Positions 2,847 through 58,468 of a stretch of DNA of 64,000 nucleotides are shown here, one piece after another (position 1 is the first letter of the stretch; the number at the start of each line of letters is the position of its first letter). The stretch covers positions 465,291 through 529,290 of the forward strand of contig CBDBMH010000002.1 of NCBI GenBank assembly GCA_965207275.1, in the 5' to 3' direction. The position numbers were made by a program, and so were the translations under genes. The notes beneath the pieces were generated by a model. That model searched no databases. It saw only the letters and a list, made by a program, of their open reading frames with translations, and was not told the DNA's origin. The DNA comes from Dehalococcoidia bacterium (GTDB lineage: Bacteria; Chloroflexota; Dehalococcoidia; Lucifugimonadales; UBA3495).

Positions 2847-3287
2847 TCAGTCGTTTCTGGCCAATTCCTCATCTATCGGTGGAGGTTCATCAAACGGCAG
2901 GCCCTCCTCCTTGGCGGCCTGCATCCGGCCGTACCAAGCCTTCCACTCCTCTACCTCTTCAGTCGCTTTCCGAATCTTCTTGAGGCTTTCCTCCTTCATT
3001 CGCTGTTCCCTTTCTCTCAGCCACTGAGCCAGCATAACTCCCTCCAGAATAATGTAAGTGCTGGCCGCCATGTTAAGAATGCTGGCGGTCATGCCCTTTT
3101 GTACGTTTAATGTAATCTCTACCCCACCGATACCGCCATGCCTAGCGACCTCGTCCCATATCGTCAGTCCCAGGAAAGTGAAGTATTGCAGTACAAATAA
3201 GACAACATACCAGCGCCAAAGATGCCCGGGAACGCTCCACATCGACTGTCTGCTCCGGGAATTCGTCGCCCTGTCTTCTTGCACCAT
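2847..3287 (-). CDS. hypothetical protein: two predicted TM segments plus a charged coiled-coil C-terminus
   Basis: 146-aa ORF with hydrophobic stretches 'WYVVLFVLQYFTFLGLTIW' and 'ILNMAASTYIILEGVMLA' and a Glu/Lys-rich tail. The stretch is AT-richer than its surroundings, and a TATAAT lies upstream on the minus strand at 3316-3321. Confidence 0.5.
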   Translation of the reverse strand: MVQEDRATNSRSRQSMWSVPGHLWRWYVVLFVLQYFTFLGLTIWDEVARHGGIGGVEITLNVQKGMTASILNMAASTYIILEGVMLAQWLREREQRMKEESLKKIRKATEEVEEWKAWYGRMQAAKEEGLPFDEPPPIDEELARND

Positions 3288-4833: not shown

Positions 4834-5769
4834 CTAACCGCGCCGTCCACCCCGTCGGGGGCCCCGGTTCAGGGAGCGCTCCAGGATATTCCGCACCGGT
4901 TCGCCCCGCACCACCTCAATATCGTCCTGGTACTTCAGCATAATTCCCAGGGTATCGTCTATCACCTCGGCGTCCAGTTCCGTCTGGTTCAGGGCCAGCA
5001 GCGCTGATGTCCAGTCAATTGTCTCCGAAACGCCGGGTATTTTGTACAATTCCGTCTCCCGCAGTTCCTGTATGAAGCCCGTAACCTGCTGGGCCAATCT
5101 GCGGGGAGCGTCGGGCAGTTTGGCGCTGACTATCTGCAGTTCCTTCTGGTAGTCCGGGTAGTCTATCCAGTAGTACAGGCACCGGCGTTTCAGGGCGTCG
5201 TGTATCTCCCTTGTCCGGTTGGACGTGATGATGACGACGGGCGGGTGGGCGGCCCGGTACGTTCCCAGTTCCGGGATGGTTATCTGGAAGTCTGCCAGCA
5301 TCTCCAGCAGAAAACCCTCGAACTCCTCGTCAGCCCGGTCCAGTTCGTCGATGAGCAGCACCGGCGATTTTTCCCGGCTCTCGTCAATGGCCTGCAGCAG
5401 GGGCCGTTTGACCAGGAACCGTTCGCTGAACAGGTCGTCGGTTGCCGACTGCCGGTCAACGTCCCCTGCCGCTTCCAACAGCCGGATTTCCAGCATCTGG
5501 CGAGTATGGTTCCACTCGTAGACTGCATGGTTGACATCCAGCCCCTCGTAGCACTGCAGGCGGATTAGCTCGGTGTCCAGGCCCCTGGCCAGGGAGCGGG
5601 CGATTTCGGTCTTGCCCACCCCGGCCTCTCCTTCCAGGAACAGGGGGCGTTGCAGCGTCAATGCCAGGTAAATGGCTACGGCAAGGCCCCGGTCAGTGAC
5701 ATATTGCTGGTTGCGCAGCAGGTTCTGGACCTGATCTATGGATGTGGGCAGGGATTTAGTCGTCGTCAA
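4834..5769 (-). CDS. MoxR-like AAA+ ATPase (CoxD-like)
   Basis: 311-aa ORF with Walker A 'GEAGVGKTE' and Walker B 'VLLIDELDRA'. The start is TTG, with GGAGAG upstream. Confidence 0.85.
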   Translation of the reverse strand: MTTTKSLPTSIDQVQNLLRNQQYVTDRGLAVAIYLALTLQRPLFLEGEAGVGKTEIARSLARGLDTELIRLQCYEGLDVNHAVYEWNHTRQMLEIRLLEAAGDVDRQSATDDLFSERFLVKRPLLQAIDESREKSPVLLIDELDRADEEFEGFLLEMLADFQITIPELGTYRAAHPPVVIITSNRTREIHDALKRRCLYYWIDYPDYQKELQIVSAKLPDAPRRLAQQVTGFIQELRETELYKIPGVSETIDWTSALLALNQTELDAEVIDDTLGIMLKYQDDIEVVRGEPVRNILERSLNRGPRRGGRRG

Positions 5770-5868
5770 GGCAGGCTCTCCGGTAGGCAGGCAAGCGAAG
5801 TAGTGAAAACATCCACTTGCGGAATTTTTGATTTCGTTGACCTATTCTATCCCATCGGGTGTGCCAAT

Positions 5869-6525
5869 TCACCCAAGGATCCAGGTGGAGGGGGATGAGA
5901 ACTCTCCCGCGAAATAATCGCGGACCAGCACCCTTAACCTGGCCCAGTGGTCCCCCAAAGATTCCCTTTCCTCGTCGGAAAGCTGATTGTAGTATTTGCC
6001 CAGCATAGGAAAGCGCCACAGGGGAAACACCCAGAAACCCGGGGCATGGGGACCTGGCTCAGCCTCCCTGGCTATTTCGCCGCTGCTCCCTGTCAATTCC
6101 CAGGACTTCAGCGGCTTCCCCGAATTGGCAATAGCCAGGGCCTCTACCCAGGAGGCCTCCCGCTGTCTGCCGGTAGCATCGTCCAACAAGTGCAGCAGGC
6201 GGCGGCGGCGCTCATTGTCGTCGGCCGCCGGACCGGCAAAACGATGGGTATAGCGGCTTTCCCAGTTGGCCCCCAGGTAAGGCACCACCAGTCCGCCGTC
6301 AGTTGCAATAACCAGCATTCCCGCCAGCCGTGACCATTCCACCGCCTTTTCCATGGCGATGGCCTGGTGAGAGTCGGCGGTTTCGTCAGGGTCGGCGGTC
6401 AGGCCGAGATCAGCGGGGGTGACCGGACTCAAAGGCAACCCCTCCAGCAAAACCCGCAGAGAGCGCTGCTTGGCCGGATTGCCCGTGGCCAGCAGGATGG
6501 GAGTTGGGATGTTGGAATCGGCCAT
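5869..6525 (-). CDS. Ham1/RdgB-like non-canonical purine NTP pyrophosphatase (tentative)
   Basis: 'ILLATGNPAKQRSL' resembles the N-terminal 'ATGNxGK' signature of the Ham1 family. The start is taken at the internal 'MADSNIP', because the upstream extension is Arg/Gly-rich and not protein-like. Confidence 0.55.
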   Translation of the reverse strand: MADSNIPTPILLATGNPAKQRSLRVLLEGLPLSPVTPADLGLTADPDETADSHQAIAMEKAVEWSRLAGMLVIATDGGLVVPYLGANWESRYTHRFAGPAADDNERRRRLLHLLDDATGRQREASWVEALAIANSGKPLKSWELTGSSGEIAREAEPGPHAPGFWVFPLWRFPMLGKYYNQLSDEERESLGDHWARLRVLVRDYFAGEFSSPSTWILG

Positions 6526-6542
6526 TGGCGCGGAACGGTTGG

Positions 6543-7217
6543 CTAAAGGATGCGGGCCACAGCCCGGGCGGCTGCGCCGTCGCCGTCCTTCAGCTTGATG
6601 GGCAGCGCCCACAGTTCAAACTCACGGCCTACCAGCTGGTCCAGGTTAATCAGGTTTTCGATAAGGGGGATGCCCTGTCCCAGCAGCAGGCGGTGGACGG
6701 GAAAGTCGTGAATGGTGGATTGGGGCGTGGCCGGATGCTTGTCGATGGGGAAATCCACCGACACGGCATTGACGCCGTTGTCAGCCAGGTAGGCGGCTCC
6801 CTTAGTGCTGAGGTAAGGGCCCTGGGAATAGAACCTGAAAGCCCCGGATTCGGCGGCGGCCCACCCCGTAAACAGCACCACGATCTTGTCCTTCACCGCC
6901 TCGGGACTCCCTCCGGCATTCTGCAGGTCCTCCACCGAAATGGCTGTCAAACCCTTGGCCACCGCGCGCAGGTCCAGCAACAGCGCCGGCCCCATGTAAC
7001 GGTTCAGGGGCATATTCTCCACCGTAGTTCCGTCGGCGTGGAAGTGGTAGGGGGCGTCCACGTGGGTGCCGATGTGGGTGGCCAGGGTCAGCTTGGTATT
7101 GGACCGCGCGTGGGACTCGTGAGTATGCAGGGGCTCGGTGCAAACCCCAATCAATCCCGGCACCGGCACAACCCGGTCGCTGCCCAGGGTGAGTGTAAGG
7201 TCAATCAGCTCAGTCAA
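6543..7217 (-). CDS. cyclase-family protein (kynurenine-formamidase-like metal hydrolase)
   Basis: 224-aa ORF with 'HIGTHVDAPYHF', which matches the HxGTHxDxPxH cyclase-family motif. Confidence 0.8.
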   Translation of the reverse strand: MTELIDLTLTLGSDRVVPVPGLIGVCTEPLHTHESHARSNTKLTLATHIGTHVDAPYHFHADGTTVENMPLNRYMGPALLLDLRAVAKGLTAISVEDLQNAGGSPEAVKDKIVVLFTGWAAAESGAFRFYSQGPYLSTKGAAYLADNGVNAVSVDFPIDKHPATPQSTIHDFPVHRLLLGQGIPLIENLINLDQLVGREFELWALPIKLKDGDGAAARAVARIL

Positions 7218-7392
7218 ATCTTGTGTCCTCGTTCTTTTGGATCACTTCTTGGGTGGTGGAATTATCGGGGCCGGGGCAAAATATCTTGGACGTTCGCCCC
7301 AACTTTGTTTCCAGTTTGAAAGCTCGCAGCCACTCTTCTCCAAGCCTGCCAAAAACGGGCTTACCGATGCTCAATCAATGCGAAATTACGGA

Positions 7393-8151
7393 TTACTGGC
7401 GATGGGCCGGCGACCCGACGCACGCTTCAATGGCCGCTTCCCACTCATCCAAGTCAAAGAAGTGGGGGCCAGCCCCGCCGCGATAGGCCACCCGGCCGTC
7501 GGTTCCCATCAGGTAAAGCCGCTCCGGCGCCGCTCCGTAGGCTTCGTCAACCGCGTTGTCCATTTCCTCAATCAGGACGGGCAAACCAATGTGCAGGTCA
7601 ATACTGCAAGCCTGGGCCACGTCCTCCCGTTCCTCGTAGCTCCGGTGTTGGCGGAAAAGGACGCCTTCCTGGATATTGCTGTCCGTTTGCCATCCGTCAG
7701 TGGGGTGGGCCTCCTGGACATACACCACAAAGAACTCCACCCGGTCCTGGTACCGGTTAAAGACTTCCGTCATGCGCTCAGACTGGGCGCGGAAGGGCGG
7801 TCAAGTATAGCTCCCAAAGGCCAGGGCCACCGGCCGCTTGCCCCTGAATTCCGACAGGCGCACCCGCTCCTCAGATCCCAGTCGCTTCAGGTTAAAGTCG
7901 TCGGGAAATTCGCCAACCCTGGGCCCGGTCTCGTCCCGCGCCAAGGTGGCTTCCAGGGCCCGGCGGACTTCTTCCGGCAGTTCATCCTGCCAGCCTTCCA
8001 GGATTTGTCTGACCGTAATCCGACCCTCGGCCGCCGCAAGGTCGGGGCTGCCGCCCCTGGTTTCCTTGATGGCGCCAATTATCCGGCGCATTGTCTGCCG
8101 GTCAGCGTCGCTCAGCCCGCTGACTGCGCTGTCTCGCTGGGACTTCAGCAT
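7393..8151 (-). CDS. iodothyronine-deiodinase-like thioredoxin-fold protein, probable selenoprotein (in-frame UGA at 7801-7803)
   Basis: Track ORFs 7801..8265 and 7393..7773 are in the same frame and joined through TGA, giving '...RPVALAFGSYT-U-PPFRAQSERMTEVFNRYQDRVEFFVVYVQEAHPTDGWQ'. This matches the deiodinase active-site context FGSxT-U-PPF. A hairpin lies at 7764-7795, just 3' of the UGA. The start is placed at ATG 8151, preceded by GGGAGG. Confidence 0.7.
7764..7795 (-). promoter_or_regulatory. candidate bacterial SECIS hairpin
   Basis: mRNA reads UGA-CCGCC-[CUUCC GCGC (CCAGUCUGA) GCGC AUGAC GGAAG]. It has a 5-bp lower stem, a 5-nt 3' bulge, a 4-bp upper stem and a 9-nt loop containing GU. 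It starts 6 nt after the UGA. Confidence 0.45.
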
Positions 8152-8210
8152 AACGACCTCCCGGTATCCACTGGATCCGGTATCCACCGGATATGAAACC
8201 TCTGAACCAG

Positions 8211-8254
8211 TCCCTTCCCCTTTTGTTGGGGGAAGGTCAGGATGGGGTGAAAGC
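8211..8254 (+). repeat. family-1 repeat copy
   Basis: TCCCTTCCCCTTTTGTTGGGGGAAGGTCAGGATGGGGTGAAAGC. It lies in the non-coding 5' extension of track ORF 7801..8265. Confidence 0.8.
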
Positions 8255-8292
8255 GCGATGATCACTCTTTGCCTTGGATGGACGCTTCCGGC

Positions 8293-9399
8293 CTACTCCA
8301 CCTGCACGTCCACCGGGAACACCATGTTATTGCCATACCCCCGGCCGTCCCACTGGTTGGGGAACTCCATAGGCTGGGTCTCGCCCAGGTTGTTGGTGGC
8401 GCGGGACATCAACGTATGTCGCCCCGGTCCCTTCGGCCGCCACTGATACTGCCAACGGAACCAGGCGTAGGAGCTGGCGCGGGGCGCCAGGGTGGCCAGG
8501 TCCCAGGTCTTCCCGCCGTCGGTGCTGACCTCTACCTTCACCACCTCTTCCTCTCCCGACCAGGCGGCGCCGGCCAGGGTGTAGCCGCCCACCGGGACAG
8601 TCTCTCCGGGCGCCGGACTGGTGATGATGGACTTGACCTTCATCTTGGTATGGTAGGTGTAGTACTCCGGGCTGTCCGGGCCGTTCTGGGTCATGTACCG
8701 TTCCGACTGGTAAAAGCCGTCAAACTTCTTGTCCAGTACGTGGATGCCCACCAGCCATTTGACCGAGTTCATCCCGTACCAGCCCGGCACCACCAGCCGC
8801 AGCGGGTAGCCGTGGTTCAGGGGCAGCGGTTCGCCGTTCATCTCGTAGGCCAGCATGGTGTCGGGATGCAGAGCCTTGGCGATGGGCAGGCTGCGCTCGT
8901 AAGTAACTTCCGGGGGATCGCCCACCGTTTCGTCGGGACCGTGGTCGGCGCCCTCGAACATTACCTCCACGGCTGAGGCCTTGACGCCGGCCCGCGCCAG
9001 CAGGTCCTTCAGGGAAATGCCGGCCCACTCGGCGTTGCCCATAATGCCGTGGCCCTTGATCATTTCCATGACCGAACCCGTGCGGGTGGCCTTGGCCCAG
9101 TAGTCGGGCACCGGGCTGTTGCCGCAGCATTCAAATGTGACCTGGAAACGCTGTTGGGCCATTCCCAGGACCTCGTCGAAGGACAGGCTCAGGGGCGTTT
9201 CCACTTCGCCGTCCACCACCAGCCGGTAGGTATTGATGTCAATTTCGGGGCAGTCGGTCCAGTGGTTGCGGATATAGAACAGGTCGTTGGGAACTACTTC
9301 CTGCTGCAGGGCCTCGGGCGGCGCCGCCCAGGTGCGGTACCCGGCGTTGGTGGGAATCAGCTGGGGCTTGATCTCGGTTCGCAAGCTTCGGGTTGCCAT
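8293..9399 (-). CDS. sulfite-oxidase-family molybdopterin oxidoreductase
   Basis: 'LFYIRNHW' and 'TFECCGNSP' (Moco cysteine-ligand context), followed by a dimerisation-domain-like C-terminus. The start is taken at the second ATG (9399), which has a perfect AGGAGG 6 nt upstream. Confidence 0.8.
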   Translation of the reverse strand: MATRSLRTEIKPQLIPTNAGYRTWAAPPEALQQEVVPNDLFYIRNHWTDCPEIDINTYRLVVDGEVETPLSLSFDEVLGMAQQRFQVTFECCGNSPVPDYWAKATRTGSVMEMIKGHGIMGNAEWAGISLKDLLARAGVKASAVEVMFEGADHGPDETVGDPPEVTYERSLPIAKALHPDTMLAYEMNGEPLPLNHGYPLRLVVPGWYGMNSVKWLVGIHVLDKKFDGFYQSERYMTQNGPDSPEYYTYHTKMKVKSIITSPAPGETVPVGGYTLAGAAWSGEEEVVKVEVSTDGGKTWDLATLAPRASSYAWFRWQYQWRPKGPGRHTLMSRATNNLGETQPMEFPNQWDGRGYGNNMVFPVDVQVE

Positions 9400-9509
9400 T
9401 CTCGGCCTCCTGAAAGGGGGTTGCATGAGGTAGACCTGAACGCTGAAATCACAAACAGGCGGAGACTACTTGTGACTAATTTAACACAGAGTTAGCAGAA
9501 GTCGCAGAC

Positions 9510-9860
9510 TTATTCCAGGTACTCGGTGTCCTGATCCGTCGTGGGATACATTACCAGCAGCCGGACGGGGATCCACAGCTTGTTGACCAGCTTGTGGGGC
9601 ACGTGCGGCGGAGCGAACAGGGTACAGCCGGCCCGCACCGTTTGCAGTTCGTCCCCGATGATCAGCTGCACCGCCCCGGCCAGCACCATTATGGCCTCGT
9701 CGGTAGAGTGGGTATGCAGCCGTCCCTCCCAGCCAGGATGTAACTCGACCTCTTTAACCGTCAGGGAGACTGCGCCCTGGTCAGCAGAAACAAAGGTGCG
9801 TTCAGCCTTGTACTCCACTGGCGCCGGCATCCTGACGGTACTGTGTTCGATGATGGGCAT
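9510..9860 (-). CDS. cupin domain protein
   Basis: 116-aa ORF with 'GWEGRLHTHSTDEAIMVLAG...LFAPPHVPH', a two-motif cupin metal-site pattern. Confidence 0.75.
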   Translation of the reverse strand: MPIIEHSTVRMPAPVEYKAERTFVSADQGAVSLTVKEVELHPGWEGRLHTHSTDEAIMVLAGAVQLIIGDELQTVRAGCTLFAPPHVPHKLVNKLWIPVRLLVMYPTTDQDTEYLE

Positions 9861-10029
9861 TAGTATTCCTCAGAATCTCCAGGATGTAGTTTCTCCCTCT
9901 TCAGAAGAGCCCCGCTAAGCATCATTGCGCCTTCCACCCGGAACAGGGTAAGGCCGGAAACGGGGAGACAGTTCCTCCAAAAGCCTCCGACGGAACCGGG
10001 AAGCTCATTGAACCGGCGGTACCAGCAAA

Positions 10030-11622
10030 TCAGGCCTCAGTGTACTTCTCCCCCAGCGCCGTCTCCCACCTCAGGTAATTCATCATGTCGGCATAGTTCC
10101 GGTCCGGGCCGCTGGCCACCAGGTCGGTGGGCGGACTCATAACTCCCGAAAGCCCCGTTTCCACCGCCAGGCCGGCCGCCCTCCAGGCATTCATTCCCCC
10201 GGCCAGCACCGTAACGTCGGCATATCCCAGTCCCCGCAGAGTGGCTGCCGCAAAAACCGAGTTCTGCCCGTCGCGGCAGGTAACCGTAACCGGCGCCGCC
10301 TTGTCCGGCGCCAGGGCGCTGACCTGCAGTTCCAGCCAACCCCTGGACACCCAGCGCGCTCCAGGCACGTGACCCTGGGCAAAATCGCCGCTGGTATCCA
10401 CGAAAATAATTGCGGAATTGGTGGTAGCCGCCCGCCCCCGCTCCAGTTCCTTTAACGAAATTTCCCTGGCCTGGGCTTTGGCATCCTCCATGCCCAGGAC
10501 CGGCTCCGCCGGAGCGCCGGTTTCCACGTCCAGCCCGGCGGCGGCCCAGGCCCCTACCCCACCGGCCACGGCGTACACCTCTTCGTGGCCCAGTTGGCGG
10601 TACCACGATGCGGTAAGGGTGGCCCGCACCTTGTCATCGCACGCAAATATAATGGGCGTGTTCCTGACCACCGCCACTTCGTCGGAACGCTGCACCGCCT
10701 GTCCGCCGGGGAACCACCGGAAGCCCGGAATATGGCCCTCGGTGTACTCCGCGGTTGTGCGCACGTCCACAAAATAGACGGTCTCAGCCTTGCTTCGTTC
10801 CATCATCTCCTGCAGACCCGGAATGTCCAGGTAGCGTACGCCGTCCTCCTCTGCTAGCCGGTCGGCGTAGGCCTCGGCCTCCGCCAGGCCCTCGGCGGAG
10901 GGCTGGGGCAGCTGAACCCGGTCCGCTCCGGATTCCAGATCGTAACCGGCCAATACCCAGCCCGACGTCCCATTCTTCAGTCCAAAGACGTTCTGGCGGC
11001 CCATGCGCTGCAGGACCCGGGTGCCGATAATGCTGCGGGTGCGTCCCGCGCAGTTCACGATCACCGTGGTATCCGGGTCCAGTTCCGCAGTGATGTCGGT
11101 GATACGCAGGGCCAGTTCGCCTCCGGGAACGCTCCGTCCCCCGGGGATGCAGAACCGGCGATACTCTTCCGGTGTGCGAGTATCCAATATAACCAGCTTG
11201 TCGCCCCGCTCAATGCGTTCGTGCAGGTCGGCGGCGTCAATCTCCGGCACGTGGTGGACCACCTCCATCCTCTCGCCGAAGTCCTTGCTGGGCACGTTGA
11301 CACCCCACTCGGTAGGGTAGTCCAGGCTGGCCCAGCGGTTAATGCCCCCTTCCAGCACCGATACGTTGGAATACCCCAATCCCTTCAGCGTACCGGCGGC
11401 CAACGCCGCCCGCCGGCCGTCGTCGTCGCACAGGATGATGTGGGCTCCGAGGTGGGGCGCCGACGCAGCGATACGGAACTCCAGCTCCCTGCGGGGTATC
11501 AGGCTGGAACCCGGTATGTGGGTGCTGTTGTATTCGCCGGCCTCGCGCACGTCGATCAGGGCGAATGATTCGTTGCCCTCCAGCAGGGAGGCAACAGCCT
11601 CGGCGGAGACTTGCTGGGACAT
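10030..11622 (-). CDS. four-domain rhodanese (sulfurtransferase) protein
   Basis: 530-aa ORF with four tandem rhodanese-like modules. The active-site Cys loops are 'CDDGRRA', 'CAGRTRS', 'CDDKVRA' and 'CRDGQNS'. Confidence 0.85.
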   Translation of the reverse strand: MSQQVSAEAVASLLEGNESFALIDVREAGEYNSTHIPGSSLIPRRELEFRIAASAPHLGAHIILCDDDGRRAALAAGTLKGLGYSNVSVLEGGINRWASLDYPTEWGVNVPSKDFGERMEVVHHVPEIDAADLHERIERGDKLVILDTRTPEEYRRFCIPGGRSVPGGELALRITDITAELDPDTTVIVNCAGRTRSIIGTRVLQRMGRQNVFGLKNGTSGWVLAGYDLESGADRVQLPQPSAEGLAEAEAYADRLAEEDGVRYLDIPGLQEMMERSKAETVYFVDVRTTAEYTEGHIPGFRWFPGGQAVQRSDEVAVVRNTPIIFACDDKVRATLTASWYRQLGHEEVYAVAGGVGAWAAAGLDVETGAPAEPVLGMEDAKAQAREISLKELERGRAATTNSAIIFVDTSGDFAQGHVPGARWVSRGWLELQVSALAPDKAAPVTVTCRDGQNSVFAAATLRGLGYADVTVLAGGMNAWRAAGLAVETGLSGVMSPPTDLVASGPDRNYADMMNYLRWETALGEKYTEA

Positions 11623-30298: not shown

Positions 30299-30349
30299 TA
30301 GCCCCAAGACTTGACCGTAGGTTCAAGACAATCAAAGGGAGGAGTAGCT

Positions 30350-31621
30350 ATGCTCAAAATCGGACATGAGGTTGTTCGACCCGGCAAGAACGTGGGCGAC
30401 GCCCCCGTAACTATCCCCGTACCCGAAGAACTGGAAACCGTTCCTGGTATTCCCAAGGTTCAGCGTGAAGTCGACTGGTACGCACGGGAATATCCAGTGG
30501 AGACCATGAATATCACCGAGCGCGCTTCCCGCGACTGGGCCAACGCCATTCGCGACCAGCACGTCGAAATGCGTGAGATCCGCAAGGAGCATGACAAGCT
30601 CAACCGCTCCCTGATCATGGGCGCCCGCCTCACCGGCGATCTCGAGCCCAGCGCTGAGCCCACCGGCGAAGATGTCAGCGAACTGATCAAGGCCAAGGCC
30701 CGTGAACTGGGTTACGTCGAAGTCGGAATCACCGCTTACGACCCCCATTACACGTACCAGAGCAAGAAGGACTGGGTGAAATTCCCCCACGTCGTCTGCC
30801 TGGCCTACGAGCAGGACTTCGAGCCCACCCAGACCATCCCCAGCGTTGACGCCGAGATCGTGCACTCCAGCACCTATCGGACCGAAGGCGCTGCCGGCCT
30901 GGAGCTCGGCAACTATATCCGCAGCCTTGGCTACCGCGCCCAGGTTCACAGTCCCAACGACAACACCGGCCCTTACATTCCCATGTTCGTGTCTGCCGGT
31001 ACCGGCCAGTTGGGCGCTTGCGGCTACCTGCTGACCCCCCACGTCGGCTCCCGCTGCCGCATCATGATGATCACCACCGACGCCAACGTCACTTATGATC
31101 AGCCGGTGGACTACGGCATCCACGCCTTCTGCCAGGTGTGCCAGGTCTGCGTGAACCGCTGCCCGGGCCGCGCCCTGATGCGCGACAAGATCTGGTGGCG
31201 GGGAATTGAGAAGAACAAGCTCTACTTCAAGCGCTGCCGCCCCGTCATGGCCCGCTACCTGGGCTGCGGCATCTGCATGAAGGTTTGCCCCATCCAGAAG
31301 TACGGCCTCCAGAACGTCATGGAGCACTATGCCGAGACCGGTCAGGTACTGGGCAAGGGCACCCACGACCTCGAAGGTTACACCCTGGAAGGCAAGGGCT
31401 ACTTCGGCCCCGGCGAAATGCCGGTCTTCGATGCCGGTTTCTTCGAAATGCCTCAGGGCGACACCGAAGAGTGGGCTTTCACCGAGTTCAAGAAGGAAGC
31501 CATGGCCAACGGCGGAACCATCACCGACGACATGATCGAGAAGTTCCGCACCGAGGTCGCCCGTGGTCTGTCCCAGAGCCGGGACAACATGGGCATGATG
31601 GAGGAAGAGGACTACATCTAG
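30350..31621 (+). CDS. reductive dehalogenase / epoxyqueuosine-reductase superfamily Fe-S protein (cytoplasmic RdhA-like)
   Basis: Two Fe-S motifs in RdhA arrangement: 'CQVCQVCVNRCP' (CxxCxxCxxxCP) and 'CGICMKVCP' (CxxCxxxCP). They are preceded by 'GQLGACGYLLTPHVGSRCRIMMITTD'. I see no twin-arginine signal and no adjacent rdhB-like anchor. ATG 30350 follows GGGAGGAG. Confidence 0.7.
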   Translation: MLKIGHEVVRPGKNVGDAPVTIPVPEELETVPGIPKVQREVDWYAREYPVETMNITERASRDWANAIRDQHVEMREIRKEHDKLNRSLIMGARLTGDLEPSAEPTGEDVSELIKAKARELGYVEVGITAYDPHYTYQSKKDWVKFPHVVCLAYEQDFEPTQTIPSVDAEIVHSSTYRTEGAAGLELGNYIRSLGYRAQVHSPNDNTGPYIPMFVSAGTGQLGACGYLLTPHVGSRCRIMMITTDANVTYDQPVDYGIHAFCQVCQVCVNRCPGRALMRDKIWWRGIEKNKLYFKRCRPVMARYLGCGICMKVCPIQKYGLQNVMEHYAETGQVLGKGTHDLEGYTLEGKGYFGPGEMPVFDAGFFEMPQGDTEEWAFTEFKKEAMANGGTITDDMIEKFRTEVARGLSQSRDNMGMMEEEDYI

Positions 31622-31650
31622 TCCCCATACTTCACTCAACCAAGGCAATC

Positions 31651-31684
31651 AGGGCCGGTGGATTCTTCCACCGGCCCTTTTCTT
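31651..31684 (+). terminator. rho-independent terminator
   Basis: AGGGCCGGTGGA-ttct-TCCACCGGCCCT forms a 12-bp perfect stem and is followed by TTTCTT. Confidence 0.8.
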
Positions 31685-31755
31685 AGTGCCTTCAACTTCC
31701 TTCTTCGCTCAGGGCAACCACCTCCTTGCTTCCGCTGCACACCCAATCGAGGAGT

Positions 31756-31796
31756 CATGCCGCCCTGAGCCTGCCGAGGGGCCTCAAGTCCTTCCC
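31756..31796 (+). repeat. family-2 repeat (CATGyCGCCCTGAGyC...GAAGGGCCTGAArTCyTGCCC type)
   Basis: CATGCCGCCCTGAGCCTGCCGAGGGGCCTCAAGTCCTTCCC. Confidence 0.75.
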
Positions 31797-32096
31797 TTCA
31801 ACCCGATATGGGCGCCAGTCAGAGAACCAGGAACATGTCCAACTTCAGCCCCAAGAGTATAAAGATATCACCACGTCTCCCGTCTTCTCTCGTTCCTTGC
31901 AGGGCAATCGTGCTTTAATAGGGAATTACATACTTCACTTGACGAATCAAGCTGACTGCTGATAGAATCAGCCCATCTAAACGCAACACCCGCTGCGCTA
32001 ACAGCGGGCGAGCGCGGAACCGTAACGCAACTATGGAGGCGGTTCCTCTGTCCAGGACGGGTTGATGGTATCAGCCTGTCTCGGCCATTGGCAATA

Positions 32097-32130
32097 CCTC
32101 CGGCGACGGTTTCGCGCCGGAGGATTTTTG
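32097..32130 (+). promoter_or_regulatory. hairpin with U-tract that also sequesters the SD of the small ORF
   Basis: CCTCCGGCG-(9 nt)-CGCCGGAGG followed by ATTTTTG, then ATG at 32131. The 3' arm contains GGAGG 7 nt from the ATG. Confidence 0.5.
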
Positions 32131-32277
32131 ATGGCAAGGACACGAAGCCGCAACCGGATTAAACAGGCATACACGGCAGCAAAGAGGACGGGCAATCTCC
32201 CAGGCCGCAAGGGTTGGGGCCAAGTGAAGGCCGCCTACCGGAAGTTGGCAGGGGATTCGCCACGCCGGGGCAGGTAA
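32131..32277 (+). CDS. small Arg/Lys-rich protein (48 aa), hypothetical
   Basis: MARTRSRNRIKQAYTAAKRTGNLPGRKGWGQVKAAYRKLAGDSPRRGR*. Its stop lies 3 nt before the MTase ATG. I recognise no family. Confidence 0.3.
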   Translation: MARTRSRNRIKQAYTAAKRTGNLPGRKGWGQVKAAYRKLAGDSPRRGR

Positions 32278-32280
32278 CAC

Positions 32281-34098
32281 ATGAGCAGGTTGAACGTATC
32301 GAACCGCACGTTGGCGATTATGGACAACCTGGCCTTCCTACGGTCCTTGAACAACGAGTGCATCGACCTGATTGCCATAGACCCGCCTTTCGCGGCAAAT
32401 GAGACCTTTACCAGCAGGCCCCGTCCGCCCATCAGCAGGAAGGAACTTGCCGAGGAAAAGGCCCTGGCCAAGTCTCACAAGGCGGCCCACAACGAAGGCA
32501 TAGGGGAATCCAGGGTCAAGGACTACTGGAACTGGGATGATGACGTTCACCCGGACTGGAAGGCCCGCATAGAAGATGATTACCCCAGAGTCTTTGCGGT
32601 GGTTCAGGCGGTCGAGGCTTGCGCCACGGAGAACGAGGCCGCCTACATCTGCTTCATGGCTACCCGGCTGATTGAGTGCCGGCGGGTCTTGAAGACTACG
32701 GGCAGCATCTACGTTCACTGCGATCATCACGCCAATAGCTACCTTCGGATGCTGCTGGATGCCATCTTCGGGGCGGAGAACTTCCGCAGCGCCATCACCT
32801 GGCGGCGGGCCACATCCCACAATGACGCGAAGGGTTACGGAAACATTACCGATACGCTGCTTTACTACTCGGTGTCCTCGGAATACGCCTGGAACGGGCA
32901 GGAAATCACCCAGCCCAAGACCGAGGAACAGTTGAAATCTGCCTATCCGCAAAAAGACGAAAACGGACCGGTCAGGTTCTCCGACCTGACCGGTGCCGGT
33001 GCCACCGACGGAGAGTCCGGGCAACCGTGGAAGGGCTATGACGTGGCTGCCAGGGGGCGTCATTGGGCGCCGCCAAAATCATCCGCCTATGCCTACTGGA
33101 TAGAGGAGCGATTCATCCCCGGTTACACCAGCTTGAGCAGCGTCCACGAGCGCCTTGACGCACTGGATGATGCTGGCCTGATTACCCACCCCAAGAAGGG
33201 CGTTTGGCCGGGGCTGAAACGATATGCTGCTGCCGACAAGGGGAATCCGCCGCAGAACCTGATCCTGGACCCTACCGGATTCACCAACTACAGCACCGGC
33301 GGCGGGGAGTTCGTCGGCTACTCTACCCAGAAGCCCCTGGCCCTCTATGAGCGGCTGATAAAGGCCAGCAGCAACCCCGGGGACGTGGTACTGGACATCT
33401 TCGCCGGTTGCGCCACCACTGCGGTTGCCGCTGAGAGCCTGAAGCGCAAGTGGATAGCTTGCGACATGGCCTATCGCTCCTGGACTATGCTCAAGCGACG
33501 GTTCTACCTGAATGGCTTTGCGCTGTCTGATATGACCGACTCCACGCGGGCGGTGCTGGGAGAGCATCAGACCAAGATGCAGCAGGCCCGGTCAAAGACC
33601 ATTGGCCCCAATGCCTTGCCCAAGCGCACCGACAAAGACCCTGCCCCTTTTCACCCTCTGGAGCAAGGACGGCGGGGAAGGCGCACTACCCAATCAGCCA
33701 GTTGGTCAGGGAGAATCCCAAAAGAGGAAGCTAAGAAGCTGCTGATTGAGCGGTTCGGCCCGGTCTGCTGGGGTTGCGGCTACGAACCGCGCCGGCCAAA
33801 TGGGAGCCTGGACGATACCCTGCTGGAAGTGGACCATATCCGCGCCCGGCGGTCCACCGAGGGAGCACAGGGGAACGATGAACTGTACAATTTGGCCCTG
33901 CTTCACCGGACCTGTAACGGAATCAAGCGGAACAAGCTGACCCTGGAAGAGTTGCGGAACGACAACGCGCTGAACGGGCGGCTGTACGTGGGTGGTTTGA
34001 CCGACTTGGTGGACCTGTACCTTGCACAGCAGTTTGCCCAGGAACAGATAGCGGCCCACGTCTTGAGACATGGGGTGCAACAGCCGATGGCGGTCTAA
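32281..34098 (+). CDS. N4/N6 DNA methyltransferase fused to a C-terminal HNH nuclease domain
   Basis: Motif IV 'LIAIDPPFAANETF' precedes motif I 'VLDIFAGCATTAVAAE', the beta-class order of the N6_N4_Mtase type. The C-terminal ~110 aa read 'CWGCGYEP...LEVDHIRARR...NLALLHRTCNGIKRNK', which is an HNH pattern. Confidence 0.85.
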   Translation: MSRLNVSNRTLAIMDNLAFLRSLNNECIDLIAIDPPFAANETFTSRPRPPISRKELAEEKALAKSHKAAHNEGIGESRVKDYWNWDDDVHPDWKARIEDDYPRVFAVVQAVEACATENEAAYICFMATRLIECRRVLKTTGSIYVHCDHHANSYLRMLLDAIFGAENFRSAITWRRATSHNDAKGYGNITDTLLYYSVSSEYAWNGQEITQPKTEEQLKSAYPQKDENGPVRFSDLTGAGATDGESGQPWKGYDVAARGRHWAPPKSSAYAYWIEERFIPGYTSLSSVHERLDALDDAGLITHPKKGVWPGLKRYAAADKGNPPQNLILDPTGFTNYSTGGGEFVGYSTQKPLALYERLIKASSNPGDVVLDIFAGCATTAVAAESLKRKWIACDMAYRSWTMLKRRFYLNGFALSDMTDSTRAVLGEHQTKMQQARSKTIGPNALPKRTDKDPAPFHPLEQGRRGRRTTQSASWSGRIPKEEAKKLLIERFGPVCWGCGYEPRRPNGSLDDTLLEVDHIRARRSTEGAQGNDELYNLALLHRTCNGIKRNKLTLEELRNDNALNGRLYVGGLTDLVDLYLAQQFAQEQIAAHVLRHGVQQPMAV

Positions 34099-35042
34099 CC
34101 TGCGTGGATGGCGAACACAGGGGCGGTCAGGTCCGCGTACCGGAGCCGCTTGCCGATGCAACCGCGCATCAGGGCCGCCATTTGGCTGAGAGTGTCGGCG
34201 GGCCGGTTGTTGTGGCGGCCCTCGAACTCATTGACGTAGCGCCCCAAGTGCTTGCCGCTCATCCAGTGGTAAATCCCGATGTAGCCGCGCTTGAGCATGG
34301 ACCAGAAGGATTCCATCCCGTTGGTATGGGCCATGTCCCTGACATACTCCCCAACGCTGTGCTTGACTGTTTCGTGGCGGCGGGGAAGGCCGGTGTACGC
34401 CGTGGCTTCGTCGGTGTAGACGATGGCCGTCGGTTCGGTCTTGCGCTGGACGATACCCTGGAGTGTGGATTTGTCGGTCTTTTCGACAACCTCGGCGTCA
34501 ACCTGGTTAGTCTCCCGGTCTTTGACACCGGCGACGGCGGTCTTCCCGACAGTACCACGCCCCGCCTTGAGTTTCTTGGATTCGTGCTTGTTCTTTTCCA
34601 GCCCGCCGATATAGGTCTCATCGGCTTCCACCGGCCCACTGAACACCGGATCGCCGCCGTCCATCGCTTCGCGGATCCGGTGGGCCAGGAACCAGGCGGA
34701 CTTTTGAGTAATACCCAAATCCCGGTGAAGTTTCATGGAGCTTACGCCCTTGAGATTGGTCAAAATCTGGTAGAAGGCAATGGCCCACTTGCGGAGGGGA
34801 ATATGGGAGGATTCCATGACCGTGCCGAGCTTCACCGAGAAGTAGGCGCGGCAATCGGAACACCAGTACGGCATTGGCTTGGCGTTGGGTACTTCGCTGG
34901 TGCGCTCACCGCCACAGCGGGCGCAAGTCCGGCCTTCCGGCCAGCGGATGGACTCGAACCAGTCGAGGGCGGTATCCTCGTCGGGGAACAGCTCCAGCAG
35001 TTCGATTATCCCGATTCCCTTGCGAAAACTCTTACCCGCCAT
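34095..35042 (-). CDS. IS1595-family transposase
   Basis: N-terminal zinc ribbon 'CARCGG...CSDCRAYFS', then a DDE region 'ETYIGG...VYTDEATAY...NGMESFWSMLKRG..H', the typical ISXO2-like layout. Confidence 0.9.
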   Translation of the reverse strand: MAGKSFRKGIGIIELLELFPDEDTALDWFESIRWPEGRTCARCGGERTSEVPNAKPMPYWCSDCRAYFSVKLGTVMESSHIPLRKWAIAFYQILTNLKGVSSMKLHRDLGITQKSAWFLAHRIREAMDGGDPVFSGPVEADETYIGGLEKNKHESKKLKAGRGTVGKTAVAGVKDRETNQVDAEVVEKTDKSTLQGIVQRKTEPTAIVYTDEATAYTGLPRRHETVKHSVGEYVRDMAHTNGMESFWSMLKRGYIGIYHWMSGKHLGRYVNEFEGRHNNRPADTLSQMAALMRGCIGKRLRYADLTAPVFAIHAG

Positions 35043-35203
35043 TGGTGCTCACCATCCCTGATTGATGGGATGATGATAGCTTATTCAGGCCGGTTTGTCA
35101 AGTGAAGTATGTAATTCCCCTTTAATAGAGGGTCATTCTGAGCGAAGCCGAAGAATCTAAACTCTAACCCACTAGCCGGGTTTTGGGCCCGCAACTGGGC
35201 TTA

Positions 35204-35246
35204 GGGGCAGGATTTCAGGCCCTTCGGCTTCGCTCAGGGCGACATG
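35204..35246 (-). repeat. family-2 repeat copy (inverted orientation)
   Basis: The plus strand reads GGGGCAGGATTTCAGGCCCTTCGGCTTCGCTCAGGGCGACATG. Confidence 0.75.
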
Positions 35247-35529
35247 ACCCTTGCCTACCGAATACTTCCCGGCTACAGCCCGAATCTATAAACAGATTGC
35301 CCTGCTGTACCTTGCTAGACAATGGTAAACCCTGTTGTTAAGATTGTTCTACTCGCTCTCAATCGGTTGCCATAACAGGTCGCCGGTATCCTGGCTCTCG
35401 CCTTCAGCATCCTCGGCATGGCGGTGGATGGGCAGCCTTTCGTCGGTAGGTAGCGCCCTCACACTCCACACTCCGTGGACCTGCCTGTCGGGACACAGCC
35501 ATATTTCCGCGCCTTTGGGGGGATTTCCG

Positions 35530-37656
35530 ATGCCACAGCTCACCCGTTGGATAACTGTACTAGCCCTGGTCACATTGCTCACCCTCCTCCTTGCCTGCAC
35601 CAGGCAGGTGGAGGTGGTCAAGGAAGTTCCTGTAGAGGTTGAAAGACAGGTTACCGTCGAGGTGGAGCGAGAGGTACCGGTAGAGGTGGAGAGGCAGGTA
35701 ATGGTGCAGGTCGTGGCTACTCCCACTCCTGGCCCGGCTCCACAGGTTGAACTGCCCCGCCAGCCCCAGGCCCAGCCCGTTGCCGGTAGCGAGCCAGCGC
35801 AAGCGGCCCCGACCCAGGTTCCGCCTCCCCCGCCGCAGCCAACAATCGCGGCAATGGTTGACGACGTAGAGCGAATCTACAAGATCGGCATTTCCGAAGA
35901 CCTGACTACCACCAACTACTGGGCCTATCTGGGTCCGGACGGCACCATCTGGAACCTGTACGTACTGAGCGGCAGCAAGCCTTCCCTCTATTCCTACACC
36001 AGCCAGACTTTCGATTGGGTCCCATCCCTGGCCTCCGACTTTCCCACCGCGTTGCTCGAAGAGACCGTGGACGGAGAGACCCTTTGGACCACGGAAGTGC
36101 CTCTCAAGCAGGGCGTAATGTGGAGCGACGGCACGGAGGTAACTGCCGAGGACTTCGCCTTCACCGCCAATACCGCCAATGAACTGATGCTCACCGGCAA
36201 CTGGCCCGGCATAGTGGACCCCGAATACTATCATCACTCCGAAGCCCTTGACCCCTACCGCCTGAAGATTTACTTCCAGAAGAAACCCGGCCTGGCCCGC
36301 TGGCAGTTCGGCCTCGCCTTCATGCCCATCTTCCCCAAGTCCTATTGGGAACCGGTGGTCGCCGAGGCAAAACAGGCCGGTGAACTGCCGGAACAGCATA
36401 AAGTCCTCTTTGCCCACGTTCCCGAGGGAGAACCCACCGGCGGCCCCTTCGGCTTCGATAAGTGGGAAAGGGGCGCCTTCGCCGAAAAGACCCGCAATGA
36501 CGACTACTATTTCCGGGGGGCCACGTCTACCCAGTACGACAATGGCGCTTATGTTGAGACCAAGCCCGGGGTCTACGAATTCGCCGCCTTCGGTGAACCT
36601 GCCGGCGAAGTCGCTCTCCAGACTATCCAGGGCCCCAACGCCAGCAGTTCCATCTATTCCGTTTACGGCAGCCAGGATGCCACGGTCCTGGCCCTCAGGA
36701 AGGGCGACATCGATTTCATGCTCAATCCCCTCGGCCTTTCCAAGGGCCTACAGGAGCAACTGGAAGGCGCCGAAGGTCTCACCACCATCTCCAACTCTTC
36801 CGATGGCGTCCGCTACCTGGGCTTCAACTTCCGTCGCGAACCCATGAACGACAAGGCATTCCGTCAGGCCGTGGCCACCCTCATTGACAAGGAATTCCTC
36901 ACCCAGACCGTCCTCCAGGGCGTCGCTATCCCCGTCTATGCCATGGTCCCCAACGGCAATGCCGCCTGGTACAACCCCGACGTGCCCCAGGTTGGCAAGG
37001 GCCTTACCCGGGCCGAGCGCGTGGCCCATGCCGTCCAAATGCTCAAGGAGGCCGGCTTTACCTGGGAAGTGGAACCCCGCGTCAGCGAAGACGGCCGGTT
37101 CGTCGAACAGCAGGGCGAGGGACTCAGGATGCCCAACGGCGAACCCATCCCGGAGATGACGGTCCTGGCGCCCAGCCCGGGCTATGACCCTCTCCGTTCG
37201 ACCTTCGCTATATGGATTGAACGCTGGCTGACCGAAGTCGGGATCCCCCTTCGAGCCGACCTCACGGGCTTTAACCTCATCGTTGATAAGGTGTTCAACC
37301 AGCAGGACTTCGATATGTGGATCCTGGGTTGGGGCCTGAGCCTCTACCCCGACTATCTTGAGGTTTTCTTCCACAGCCGGTACTCCGACCTGGAAGGATA
37401 CAATGCGGGAGGATACAACAACCCCGAATTTGACCAATTGGCCGACGACCTGGTGGCGGAAACCGACCTGCAAAGCGCCCGGGACCAGGTCTTCCGCATG
37501 CAGGCCTTCCTGGCCGATGACCTGCCCTACGTTACCCTGTTCACCACCCCCATAGTGGAAACCTACCGCAGCGACAAGATTGAGTTTCCCTACACCGATA
37601 ATCTGGGCGGCCTTCAAAACGTAGCCGGCATGCCATCCCTGGTCAGCTTCAAGTAA
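35530..37656 (+). CDS. ABC transporter substrate-binding lipoprotein, family 5 (peptide/nickel type)
   Basis: Start is at ATG 35530. The signal and lipobox are 'LALVTLLTLLLAC', followed by a repetitive linker and a large SBP_bac_5-like body. Two permeases and two ATPases follow. Confidence 0.85.
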   Translation: MPQLTRWITVLALVTLLTLLLACTRQVEVVKEVPVEVERQVTVEVEREVPVEVERQVMVQVVATPTPGPAPQVELPRQPQAQPVAGSEPAQAAPTQVPPPPPQPTIAAMVDDVERIYKIGISEDLTTTNYWAYLGPDGTIWNLYVLSGSKPSLYSYTSQTFDWVPSLASDFPTALLEETVDGETLWTTEVPLKQGVMWSDGTEVTAEDFAFTANTANELMLTGNWPGIVDPEYYHHSEALDPYRLKIYFQKKPGLARWQFGLAFMPIFPKSYWEPVVAEAKQAGELPEQHKVLFAHVPEGEPTGGPFGFDKWERGAFAEKTRNDDYYFRGATSTQYDNGAYVETKPGVYEFAAFGEPAGEVALQTIQGPNASSSIYSVYGSQDATVLALRKGDIDFMLNPLGLSKGLQEQLEGAEGLTTISNSSDGVRYLGFNFRREPMNDKAFRQAVATLIDKEFLTQTVLQGVAIPVYAMVPNGNAAWYNPDVPQVGKGLTRAERVAHAVQMLKEAGFTWEVEPRVSEDGRFVEQQGEGLRMPNGEPIPEMTVLAPSPGYDPLRSTFAIWIERWLTEVGIPLRADLTGFNLIVDKVFNQQDFDMWILGWGLSLYPDYLEVFFHSRYSDLEGYNAGGYNNPEFDQLADDLVAETDLQSARDQVFRMQAFLADDLPYVTLFTTPIVETYRSDKIEFPYTDNLGGLQNVAGMPSLVSFK

Positions 37657-58360: not shown

Positions 58361-58428
58361 CCGGCCCCTGCAGGGCAATCGCATTACGGACTTGAGATAC
58401 AGCCGGCATATGTTCCCAGGCCGGATGT

Positions 58429-58468
58429 CATGTCGCCCTGAGCCTGCCGAAGGGCCTGAAGTCTTGCC
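58429..58468 (+). repeat. family-2 repeat copy
   Basis: CATGTCGCCCTGAGCCTGCCGAAGGGCCTGAAGTCTTGCC. Confidence 0.8.

Follow-up and report, generated by a model that had tools for sequence, protein, structure and literature searches.

Analysis of a 64,000-nucleotide stretch of contig CBDBMH010000002.1 (positions 465,291 to 529,290 of the forward strand; referred to throughout as the window) identified a segment of 3199 bp which is very likely an autonomous transporter insertion sequence (tIS) of the IS1595 family that is mobile as a whole unit; it resides in the chromosome of a Dehalococcoidia bacterium that probably lives in symbiosis with a marine sponge. Between its ends the element carries a transposase gene, a passenger (cargo) gene for a 605-aa protein in which a DNA methyltransferase and an HNH motif are combined, and a small basic open reading frame (ORF); the coordinates of all features are collected in Table 1.

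The segment is bracketed by a 23-nt left inverted repeat (IR; the left copy, IRL, reads GGGAATTACATACTTCACTTGAC) and by its exact reverse complement at the right end (IRR), the two matching at 23 of 23 positions. These were the only two matches to the IR in the window, even when 3 mismatches were allowed, while none was expected from shuffled sequences. Identical copies of the octamer CTTTAATA abut the two ends of the element as an 8-bp target site duplication (TSD). Direct reading and the shuffles therefore bear out the perfect IRs, the 8-bp TSD and the length of 3199 bp that had been reported in an earlier note on this DNA. A composite transposon was considered and rejected, as there is one transposase and one IR pair.

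The GC content of the element is 59% compared to 61% in its surroundings, and that of the TSD is 12.5% in a genome of 61% GC; octamers of 25% GC or less make up just 4.7% of those in the window. The TSD also fits the target pattern of the clade, NWWNNWWN, which was drawn from 35 TSDs of related elements with a mean GC content of 17.5% (59% in their flanks). The insertion is intergenic, between ORFs at 30311-31621 and 35335-37656, and disrupts no gene. The surroundings of the insertion site are repeat-rich intergenic DNA. A dispersed intergenic repeat (GTCATGCCGCCCTGAGCCTGCCGA/GGG-like) was observed at 31754-31780 and recurs at 58427-58453, and an imperfect palindrome of 50+50 nt built on CTGAGCGAAGCCGAAG lies by the insertion site at 35138-35237 (repeat region 35132-35243). 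The flanks share an inverted match of 17 nt (94%; 31754-31770 and 35232-35248), so that inverted repeats beside the element, as claimed previously, do exist, while the particular 'family-2' pair proposed (31756-31796 and 35204-35246) is only partly supported.

The same unit, cargo included, was found at 86-98% identity at no fewer than four other sites (at least) in other metagenomes (loci outside the window are given L numbers). At L001, on a 150-kb scaffold with 86% DNA identity, the same genes lie between identical 23-bp IRs and the copy has a TSD of its own, CTTCCGAA; identical IRs with a different TSD indicate that the whole unit transposes. L092 is 97.9% identical across all 3199 bp and has unrelated flanks. 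Two more copies are L093 and L094, and L093, L094 and L095 stand in other flanks again. The 23-bp IRs are identical in L001, L092, L093, L094 and L095. When proteins were clustered at 90% identity, the transposase and methylase-HNH clusters co-occurred on contigs of 3207, 3618, 8101 and 150,908 bp; contigs of 3207, 3234 and 3618 bp hold both genes and are of the size expected of a self-assembled repeat. In every copy found the cargo lies inside the element (L001, L092, L093 and L095), whereas cargo outside the element in other copies was what the earlier note had named as weakening the claim of mobility. The methylase-HNH gene of the window is wholly contained in the DNA that separates IRL from the 3' end of the transposase gene and, as a passenger, moves with the element, as in a transporter IS. 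In L095 the methylase-HNH gene was observed to be split by a different IS1595-type element (5662-8047), which encodes a 325-aa transposase, a 224-aa N6_N4 methylase and a 166-aa ORF, such that one transporter IS is nested in another.

The transposase (315 aa) matched Pfam family PF12762 (DDE_Tnp_IS1595; 6.5e-38, residues 135-278) and the NCBIfam model NF033547 (transpos_IS1595; 1.9e-56, with 215 of 215 model positions covered), and its N-terminus carries a zinc ribbon (PF12760, Zn_ribbon_IS1595; 2.8e-07) whose cysteines C40, C43, C61 and C64 are each at least 97% conserved in 120 homologues. Loss of the DDE triad had been named beforehand as a finding that would weaken the claim of mobility; the triad is intact, with D141 (ADETY), D211 (YTDEA) and E244 (MESFW) each conserved in at least 97% of the same homologues, and K251/R252 follow E244 by seven to eight residues, giving the D,D,(E/N/H)+K/R arrangement, with the catalytic positions assigned from motif and conservation rather than from a solved structure. 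A protein search of PLSDB gave best matches of at most 47% identity, labelled merely 'IS1595 family transposase', and an exact-sequence look-up of the window transposase returned no record. The stop codons of the transposase and cargo genes overlap by 4 nt, tail to tail.

Comparison with the L001 copy gave ratios of nonsynonymous to synonymous substitution (dN/dS) of 0.08 for the transposase gene, 0.09 for the cargo gene and 0.15 for the small ORF, the last rising to 3.8 and 1.6 in the other two frames; all three therefore evolve as coding genes, under purifying selection.

Three observations limit what can be said on whether the insertion at this site is recent or still active. The octamers flanking L092 differ from one another (AAAACTTT at 44-51 and CAATCTTT at 3251-3258), pointing to copies that have recombined or to a multi-copy repeat that was assembled as a chimera. 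The 64-kb window holds a single copy of the element, a second one having been sought there and not found. Finally, the empty site was reconstructed as CAATCGTGCTTTAATAGAGGGTCATTC, the uninterrupted allele being expected to read ...GTGCTTTAATAGAGGG..., and no match to this query was obtained in a metagenome scan. Further copies were thus found as the earlier note had envisaged, and an empty site was not; recency is plausible but undated, and neither it nor current activity in this genome is proven.

The protein encoded by the cargo gene is predicted to join an HNH nuclease to an N6-adenine methyltransferase that is of the beta class and resembles Type III Mod. Sequence matches in the Protein Data Bank (PDB) were to MboIIA, CcrM, RsrI and EcoP15I Mod, and a Foldseek search with an AlphaFold2 (AF2) model placed the Type III Mod structures 6k0w and 4zcf at the top, followed by beta-class N6-adenine methyltransferases. 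The catalytic motifs of both a methyltransferase and a nuclease lie on this one polypeptide. In an alignment of 126 proteins, a set which takes in cargo proteins of sibling elements only ~40% identical to this one, methyltransferase motifs IV and I were conserved, as were residues C496, C499, D518, H519, N537, C545, N546 and K549 of the HNH motif, of which the catalytic DH, both asparagines and the zinc ligands reach at least 97%. A metagenome scan with the methylase-HNH protein gave no relatives, and a scan of viral contigs with the methylase-HNH alignment gave nothing, hence there was no sign of phage-borne cargo. Two known types of system were rejected for this gene: an IscB-like RNA-guided system (NF040563 matched at 5.9e-05 with 22 bits, compared to a cut-off of 175, over the HNH motif only, with no RuvC) and a Type III system (the element has no Res subunit).

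We would give roughly even chances to the cargo acting as a restriction-modification-like enzyme. Certain results pull the other way: the AF2 model is of moderate confidence (predicted local distance difference test score, pLDDT, 69.5), the match to PADLOC families (MTase_II / MTase_III) is restricted to the methyltransferase part, and no characterised Mod-like methyltransferase-HNH fusion was found in the literature searched, so that a single-chain restriction-modification enzyme of a Type IIC/IIG-like kind is a reading from domain logic. It could instead be proposed that the protein is an orphan epigenetic methyltransferase only, with the HNH region a DNA-binding or zinc-finger remnant which does not restrict DNA. 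The methyltransferase part does give far stronger family signals, the Pfam HNH score is weak (24.3 bits), the model is of low confidence at residues 523-536 within the HNH region, and the sibling L084 carries a solitary methylase. Set against this are the conservation of the HNH catalytic and zinc-binding residues even in cargo proteins of ~40% identity, the strong purifying selection over the whole gene, and the existence of siblings with HNH-only cargo (L011) or a C5 methylase plus a separate HNH protein (L045), which argue that nuclease function is selected; an orphan methyltransferase is accordingly regarded as unlikely.

Related elements were collected by a transposase scan of species-representative genomes, which yielded 80 loci. 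Their hosts are mostly Dehalococcoidia metagenome-assembled genomes (MAGs), along with Caldilineaceae, Binatia, Poribacteria, Terriglobia, Thioclava, Amylibacter and Gammaproteobacteria; the bin names (IRC4, COS1, SB06xx), taken by themselves, suggest a marine-sponge origin of these MAGs. An IR pair starting GGGAATTA(T/C) with a perfect 8-bp TSD delimits ~30 of the 80 loci, at lengths of 1392-4326 bp. Restriction-modification-type cargo is present in about half of the distinct elements, the commonest being the methylase-HNH fusion, which occurs in about ten of them (L013, L016, L026, L028, L029, L033, L042, L083, L087 and the window element) and in both orientations across the clade. Other elements carry an EcoO109I-type nuclease with a methylase (L010), an Eco29kI-type nuclease (RE_Eco29kI) with a second gene (L005), the C5 methylase with a separate HNH protein mentioned above (L045), a Dam-like methylase with a protein of unknown type (L063, in many copies in one Thioclava genome), a lone methylase (L084) or a lone HNH (L011). 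Outside the restriction-modification type, cargo consists of a tyrosine recombinase (L012), a KilA-N protein (L054), a P63C protein (L085) or secreted or Pro/Thr-rich proteins (L021, L035, L036, L043, L046 and L052). L018, L019 and L024 are nearly free of cargo, at 1382-1392 bp; by this measure the earlier estimate that the window element is about three times the size of a plain member holds roughly.

Pairwise identities of transposase and methylase-HNH protein across these elements were uncorrelated (Spearman -0.12, p = 0.48). The window element and L013 share 82% identity in the transposase and 41% in the cargo, while for L028 and L083 the values are 63% and 73%, respectively. Such discordant identities imply that cargo has been repeatedly captured or exchanged rather than co-inherited with the transposase. 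The nearest relatives of the cargo outside elements are stand-alone chromosomal genes with 74-83% identity. One of these was observed at L090 (5001-6848), where an 83% identical methylase-HNH homologue (P0002) lies outside any element and 65 bp from an IS1595-type IR pair; the neighbouring IS1595-type element (6913-11164; 4252 bp) has IRs matching at 24 of 24 positions and TSD TAAAAGAA, and holds a SocA_Panacea gene. This layout could be the arrangement which precedes capture.

These data also bear on the proposal that the methylase-HNH protein belongs to the machinery of transposition or spread, either by HNH nicking for insertion or homing or by timing transposition through methylation of the ends, as Dam does for IS10. 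Its recurrence in about ten distinct elements and in both orientations would fit such a role, as would the transposase/cargo discordance, from which the pairing must have been re-created several times, and the L090 gene, which adjoins an insertion sequence yet lies outside it. However, the cargo-free 1392-bp siblings L018 and L019 have perfect TSDs at two sites, so that the transposase alone appears sufficient; siblings with wholly different cargo likewise have perfect TSDs, and the Thioclava MAG holds many element copies with Dam-like methylase cargo and no HNH. A part for the cargo in transposition itself is therefore considered quite improbable. That the window holds only a plain IS1595 element beside a resident methylase-HNH gene, with a chance look-alike repeat on the far side and the cargo outside the mobile unit, is hardly credible: close homologues are often stand-alone with no transposase nearby (P0003, 77%; P0007, 74%) and P0002 sits outside the neighbouring IR pair, but the same layout, bounded each time by identical IRs of 23 bp, is found again in four or more other contexts (L001, L092, L093 and L095), one of them with its own perfect TSD, and perfect 23-bp IRs together with a perfect 8-bp TSD are not expected by chance.

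Several further observations were made on the sibling elements. L030 and L031, from one genome (OZ242284.1), are identical 2464-bp copies with swapped flanking octamers (TTTCCGTT...ATTTCAAT and ATTTCAAT...TTTCCGTT), the pattern left behind when two copies recombine and chromosomal DNA is inverted. One and the same element, with the Dam-like methylase and a 228-aa protein of unknown type, occupies at least 17 loci (L063-L079) of the Thioclava sp. MAG CBDIBW01, most of its bounded copies measuring 2812 bp; in variants of 4.3 kb there is a 484-aa ORF, which seems to belong to a further inserted element and whose internal position differs. A long tandem repeat of a pentanucleotide, (GTCCA)n, separates the methylase-HNH cargo of L087 and L089 from the distal IR and lies inside the element at ~110-230 nt from that IR; the repeat differs in length between the two, the elements themselves being 2910 and 2888 bp long.

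The end of the element distal to the transposase appears to form a platform from which cargo may be expressed. Each IR carries one of the two best promoter-like sites of the region, and each of these sites points inward; in many siblings a TTGACA-N17 -10-like box lies past the distal IR and immediately precedes convergent cargo. The predicted structured leader which follows the IRL-borne site is kept in L001 (5699-5853), L005 (2385-2540, reverse strand) and L023 (8451-8607, reverse strand), and a covariance model built from the four copies found a divergent leader in L011 (7540-7698, reverse strand; 24.8 bits). Base pairs changed on both sides numbered 8 of 38, compared to 2.5 in shuffles; this covariation, coming from only 5 sequences in an alignment fitted to the model, is suggestive only. 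An Rfam search at a permissive threshold (31500-35500) gave matches at chance level only, none of them on the leader. Between leader and cargo, in elements whose cargo differs, highly basic proteins of 42-48 aa follow the pattern MA..R.R.RI..A.TAA.RT..LP.R...KAA.RKLA. The 48-aa small ORF of the window had no Pfam, NCBIfam or PADLOC match and a homologue search gave no candidates; a 42-aa homologue is nevertheless present in L005 (reverse strand), in the same position ahead of a different cargo.

Positions 1-215 of the element are ~82-86% identical to the matching end of L005 and to L023. As the left 215 bp and the small ORF are common to L005 with its other cargo, they belong to the backbone and not to the passenger; the small basic ORF described in the earlier note is thus real, as its in-frame dN/dS shows, and is not cargo. 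At the other side, DNA homology with L005 and L010 (both with other cargo) begins at ~34127-34131, an edge 30-35 nt into the transposase gene as counted from its 3' end, so that the last ~11 transposase codons lie in cargo-specific DNA. From these two edges the predicted exchangeable slot is ~32278-34130, holding just the methylase-HNH gene. To our knowledge, a distal-end platform of this kind (promoter, leader and small basic ORF) has no description for the IS1595 family.

Table 1. Position of features of the 3199-bp element and its borders within the window
Feature	Position	Strand	Remarks
Left TSD copy, CTTTAATA	31913..31920	.	Read directly; same as 35120-35127
IRL, transposase-distal IR	31921..31943	+	Perfect 23/23 with IRR; contains -35-like TTGACG
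Promoter-like site TTGACG-18-TAGAAT with TG extension, inward	31939..31968	+	10/12 matches; putative promoter for leader, small ORF and cargo
Predicted structured 5' leader, ~155 nt, four hairpins	31973..32131	+	Minimum free energy -73.8 kcal/mol, z = -4.57
Terminator-like last hairpin of leader	stem-loop 32097-32123; tail ATTTTT 32124-32129	+	Just before small ORF ATG
Small basic ORF, 48 aa (MARTRSRNRIKQAYTAAKRTGNLPGRKGWGQVKAAYRKLAGDSPRRGR)	32131..32277	+	Likely start ATG 32131; stop 32275-32277
Cargo, predicted 605-aa methyltransferase-HNH fusion	32281..34098	+	Pfam N6_N4_Mtase + HNH; PADLOC
Methyltransferase core, residues 28-396	32362-33468	+	DPPF 34-37 (motif IV); FAGCAT 374-379 (motif I)
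Variable target-recognition region, residues ~176-345	32806-33315	+	Least conserved part
HNH motif, residues 496-549	33766-33927	+	Pfam HNH match at residues 513-551
IS1595-family transposase, 315 aa	34095..35042	-	PF12762, PF12760, NF033547
Transposase catalytic codons	D141 34620-34622; D211 34410-34412; E244 34311-34313	-	
Transposase zinc ribbon, C40-C64	34851-34925	-	
Promoter-like site TTGACA-17-TATCAT of transposase, inward	35073..35101	-	-35 within IRR; 11/12 matches, best in region; putative function
IRR, transposase-proximal IR	35097..35119	-	Exact reverse complement of IRL
Right TSD copy, CTTTAATA	35120..35127	.	Read directly

Taken together, these features suggest the following scheme for the element. 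The transposase, presumably expressed from the promoter-like site with its -35 box in IRR, acts on both 23-bp ends, and the whole 3199-bp unit is inserted into AT-rich octamers with duplication of 8 bp. The inward promoter borne by IRL would drive the leader, the small ORF and the cargo gene, with the terminator-like hairpin of the leader limiting cargo expression. A single recognition region may serve both the methyltransferase and the HNH nuclease; the host's own sites would be methylated, and the HNH domain could nick or cut unmethylated DNA, which would confer a defence role on the host's behalf. An addiction role may also be envisaged: were the gene lost, nuclease that persisted would meet sites no longer protected by methylation, such that loss of the element would be penalised and the element stabilised.

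For annotation, the 3.2 kb can be treated as one mobile unit with defined ends, putative promoters and three genes, the leader and small ORF being backbone. The presence of restriction-modification modules in about half of the relatives surveyed, discordant trees and many host phyla suggest that methylase and nuclease genes routinely travel between co-resident bacteria on a minimal DDE transposon. A stronger version, in which this sub-clade is a specialised restriction-modification or defence shuttle with a built-in platform, whose cargo slot has repeatedly taken up Mod-like methyltransferase-HNH enzymes of an uncharacterised type and which has spread across phyla in apparent sponge microbiomes, is offered tentatively, as a possibility we lean against. 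If the methylase-HNH protein does restrict DNA, a compact single-gene type of restriction-modification system would be added and, if the scheme is true, the element would provide a simple model for the way in which insertion sequences are stabilised by passengers of this sort. Three aspects are modestly new, none of them established yet: methylase-HNH cargo that recurs across elements, the leaning of the clade to restriction-modification genes as cargo, and the platform conserved at the distal end, with its promoter, leader and small basic protein.

With regard to subgroup within the family, the ISNwi1 group of ISfinder/TnPedia has ends of the form ggnnatTAT, a DDEK-type triad and passenger-carrying members of 1.75-4.75 kb. 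The window element, with ends GGGAATTA(T/C), an 8-bp TSD, E as third catalytic residue and a length of 3.2 kb, is consistent with this group and probably belongs to an ISNwi1-like subgroup.

In the methyltransferase, the best matches over residues ~1-410 are Type III Mod (4zcf and 6k0w) together with MboIIA, RsrI, CcrM and M.BceJIV, and the protein has in common with Type III Mod and beta-class enzymes that motif IV (DPPF) precedes motif I with the recognition region between them. Unlike in Type III systems, the element has no ORF for a Res helicase-nuclease, and the predicted nuclease is the fused HNH. The classical Type IIG architecture, an N-terminal PD-(D/E)XK nuclease with a gamma-class methyltransferase, differs also, as the HNH of the window protein is C-terminal and its methyltransferase is Mod-like and of the beta class.

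The transporter IS concept stems from the paper which founded the IS1595 family (Siguier, Gagnevin & Chandler 2009, as reported in PMC7986276 and PMC12888890), and the same paper is cited in PMC2853133 for the association of insertion sequences with restriction-modification genes and with solitary methylases. Furuta, Abe & Kobayashi (2010; PMC2853133) described restriction-modification genes between IRs with 8-bp duplications, including a unit in Neisseria gonorrhoeae whose IRs measure 26 bp and whose TSD is 8 bp long, and which pairs a Type IIG gene with a transposase-like gene of COG3677. Unlike in those units, the transposase of the window element is intact, and the unit was seen at several independent sites. 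Nothing specific on IS1595 elements in sponge symbionts was found in the literature searched. The window element resembles the IS1595 transporter IS in its single transposase with zinc ribbon and ISXO2-like DDE domain, its short IRs, its 8-bp TSD and the presence of genes unrelated to transposition between the IRs; it differs from earlier ones in its cargo, a predicted Mod-like methyltransferase-HNH fusion, and in its hosts, Dehalococcoidia and other probable sponge-associated MAGs. Transporter IS and their restriction-modification or methylase passengers were already known, and the element described here adds a member to them.

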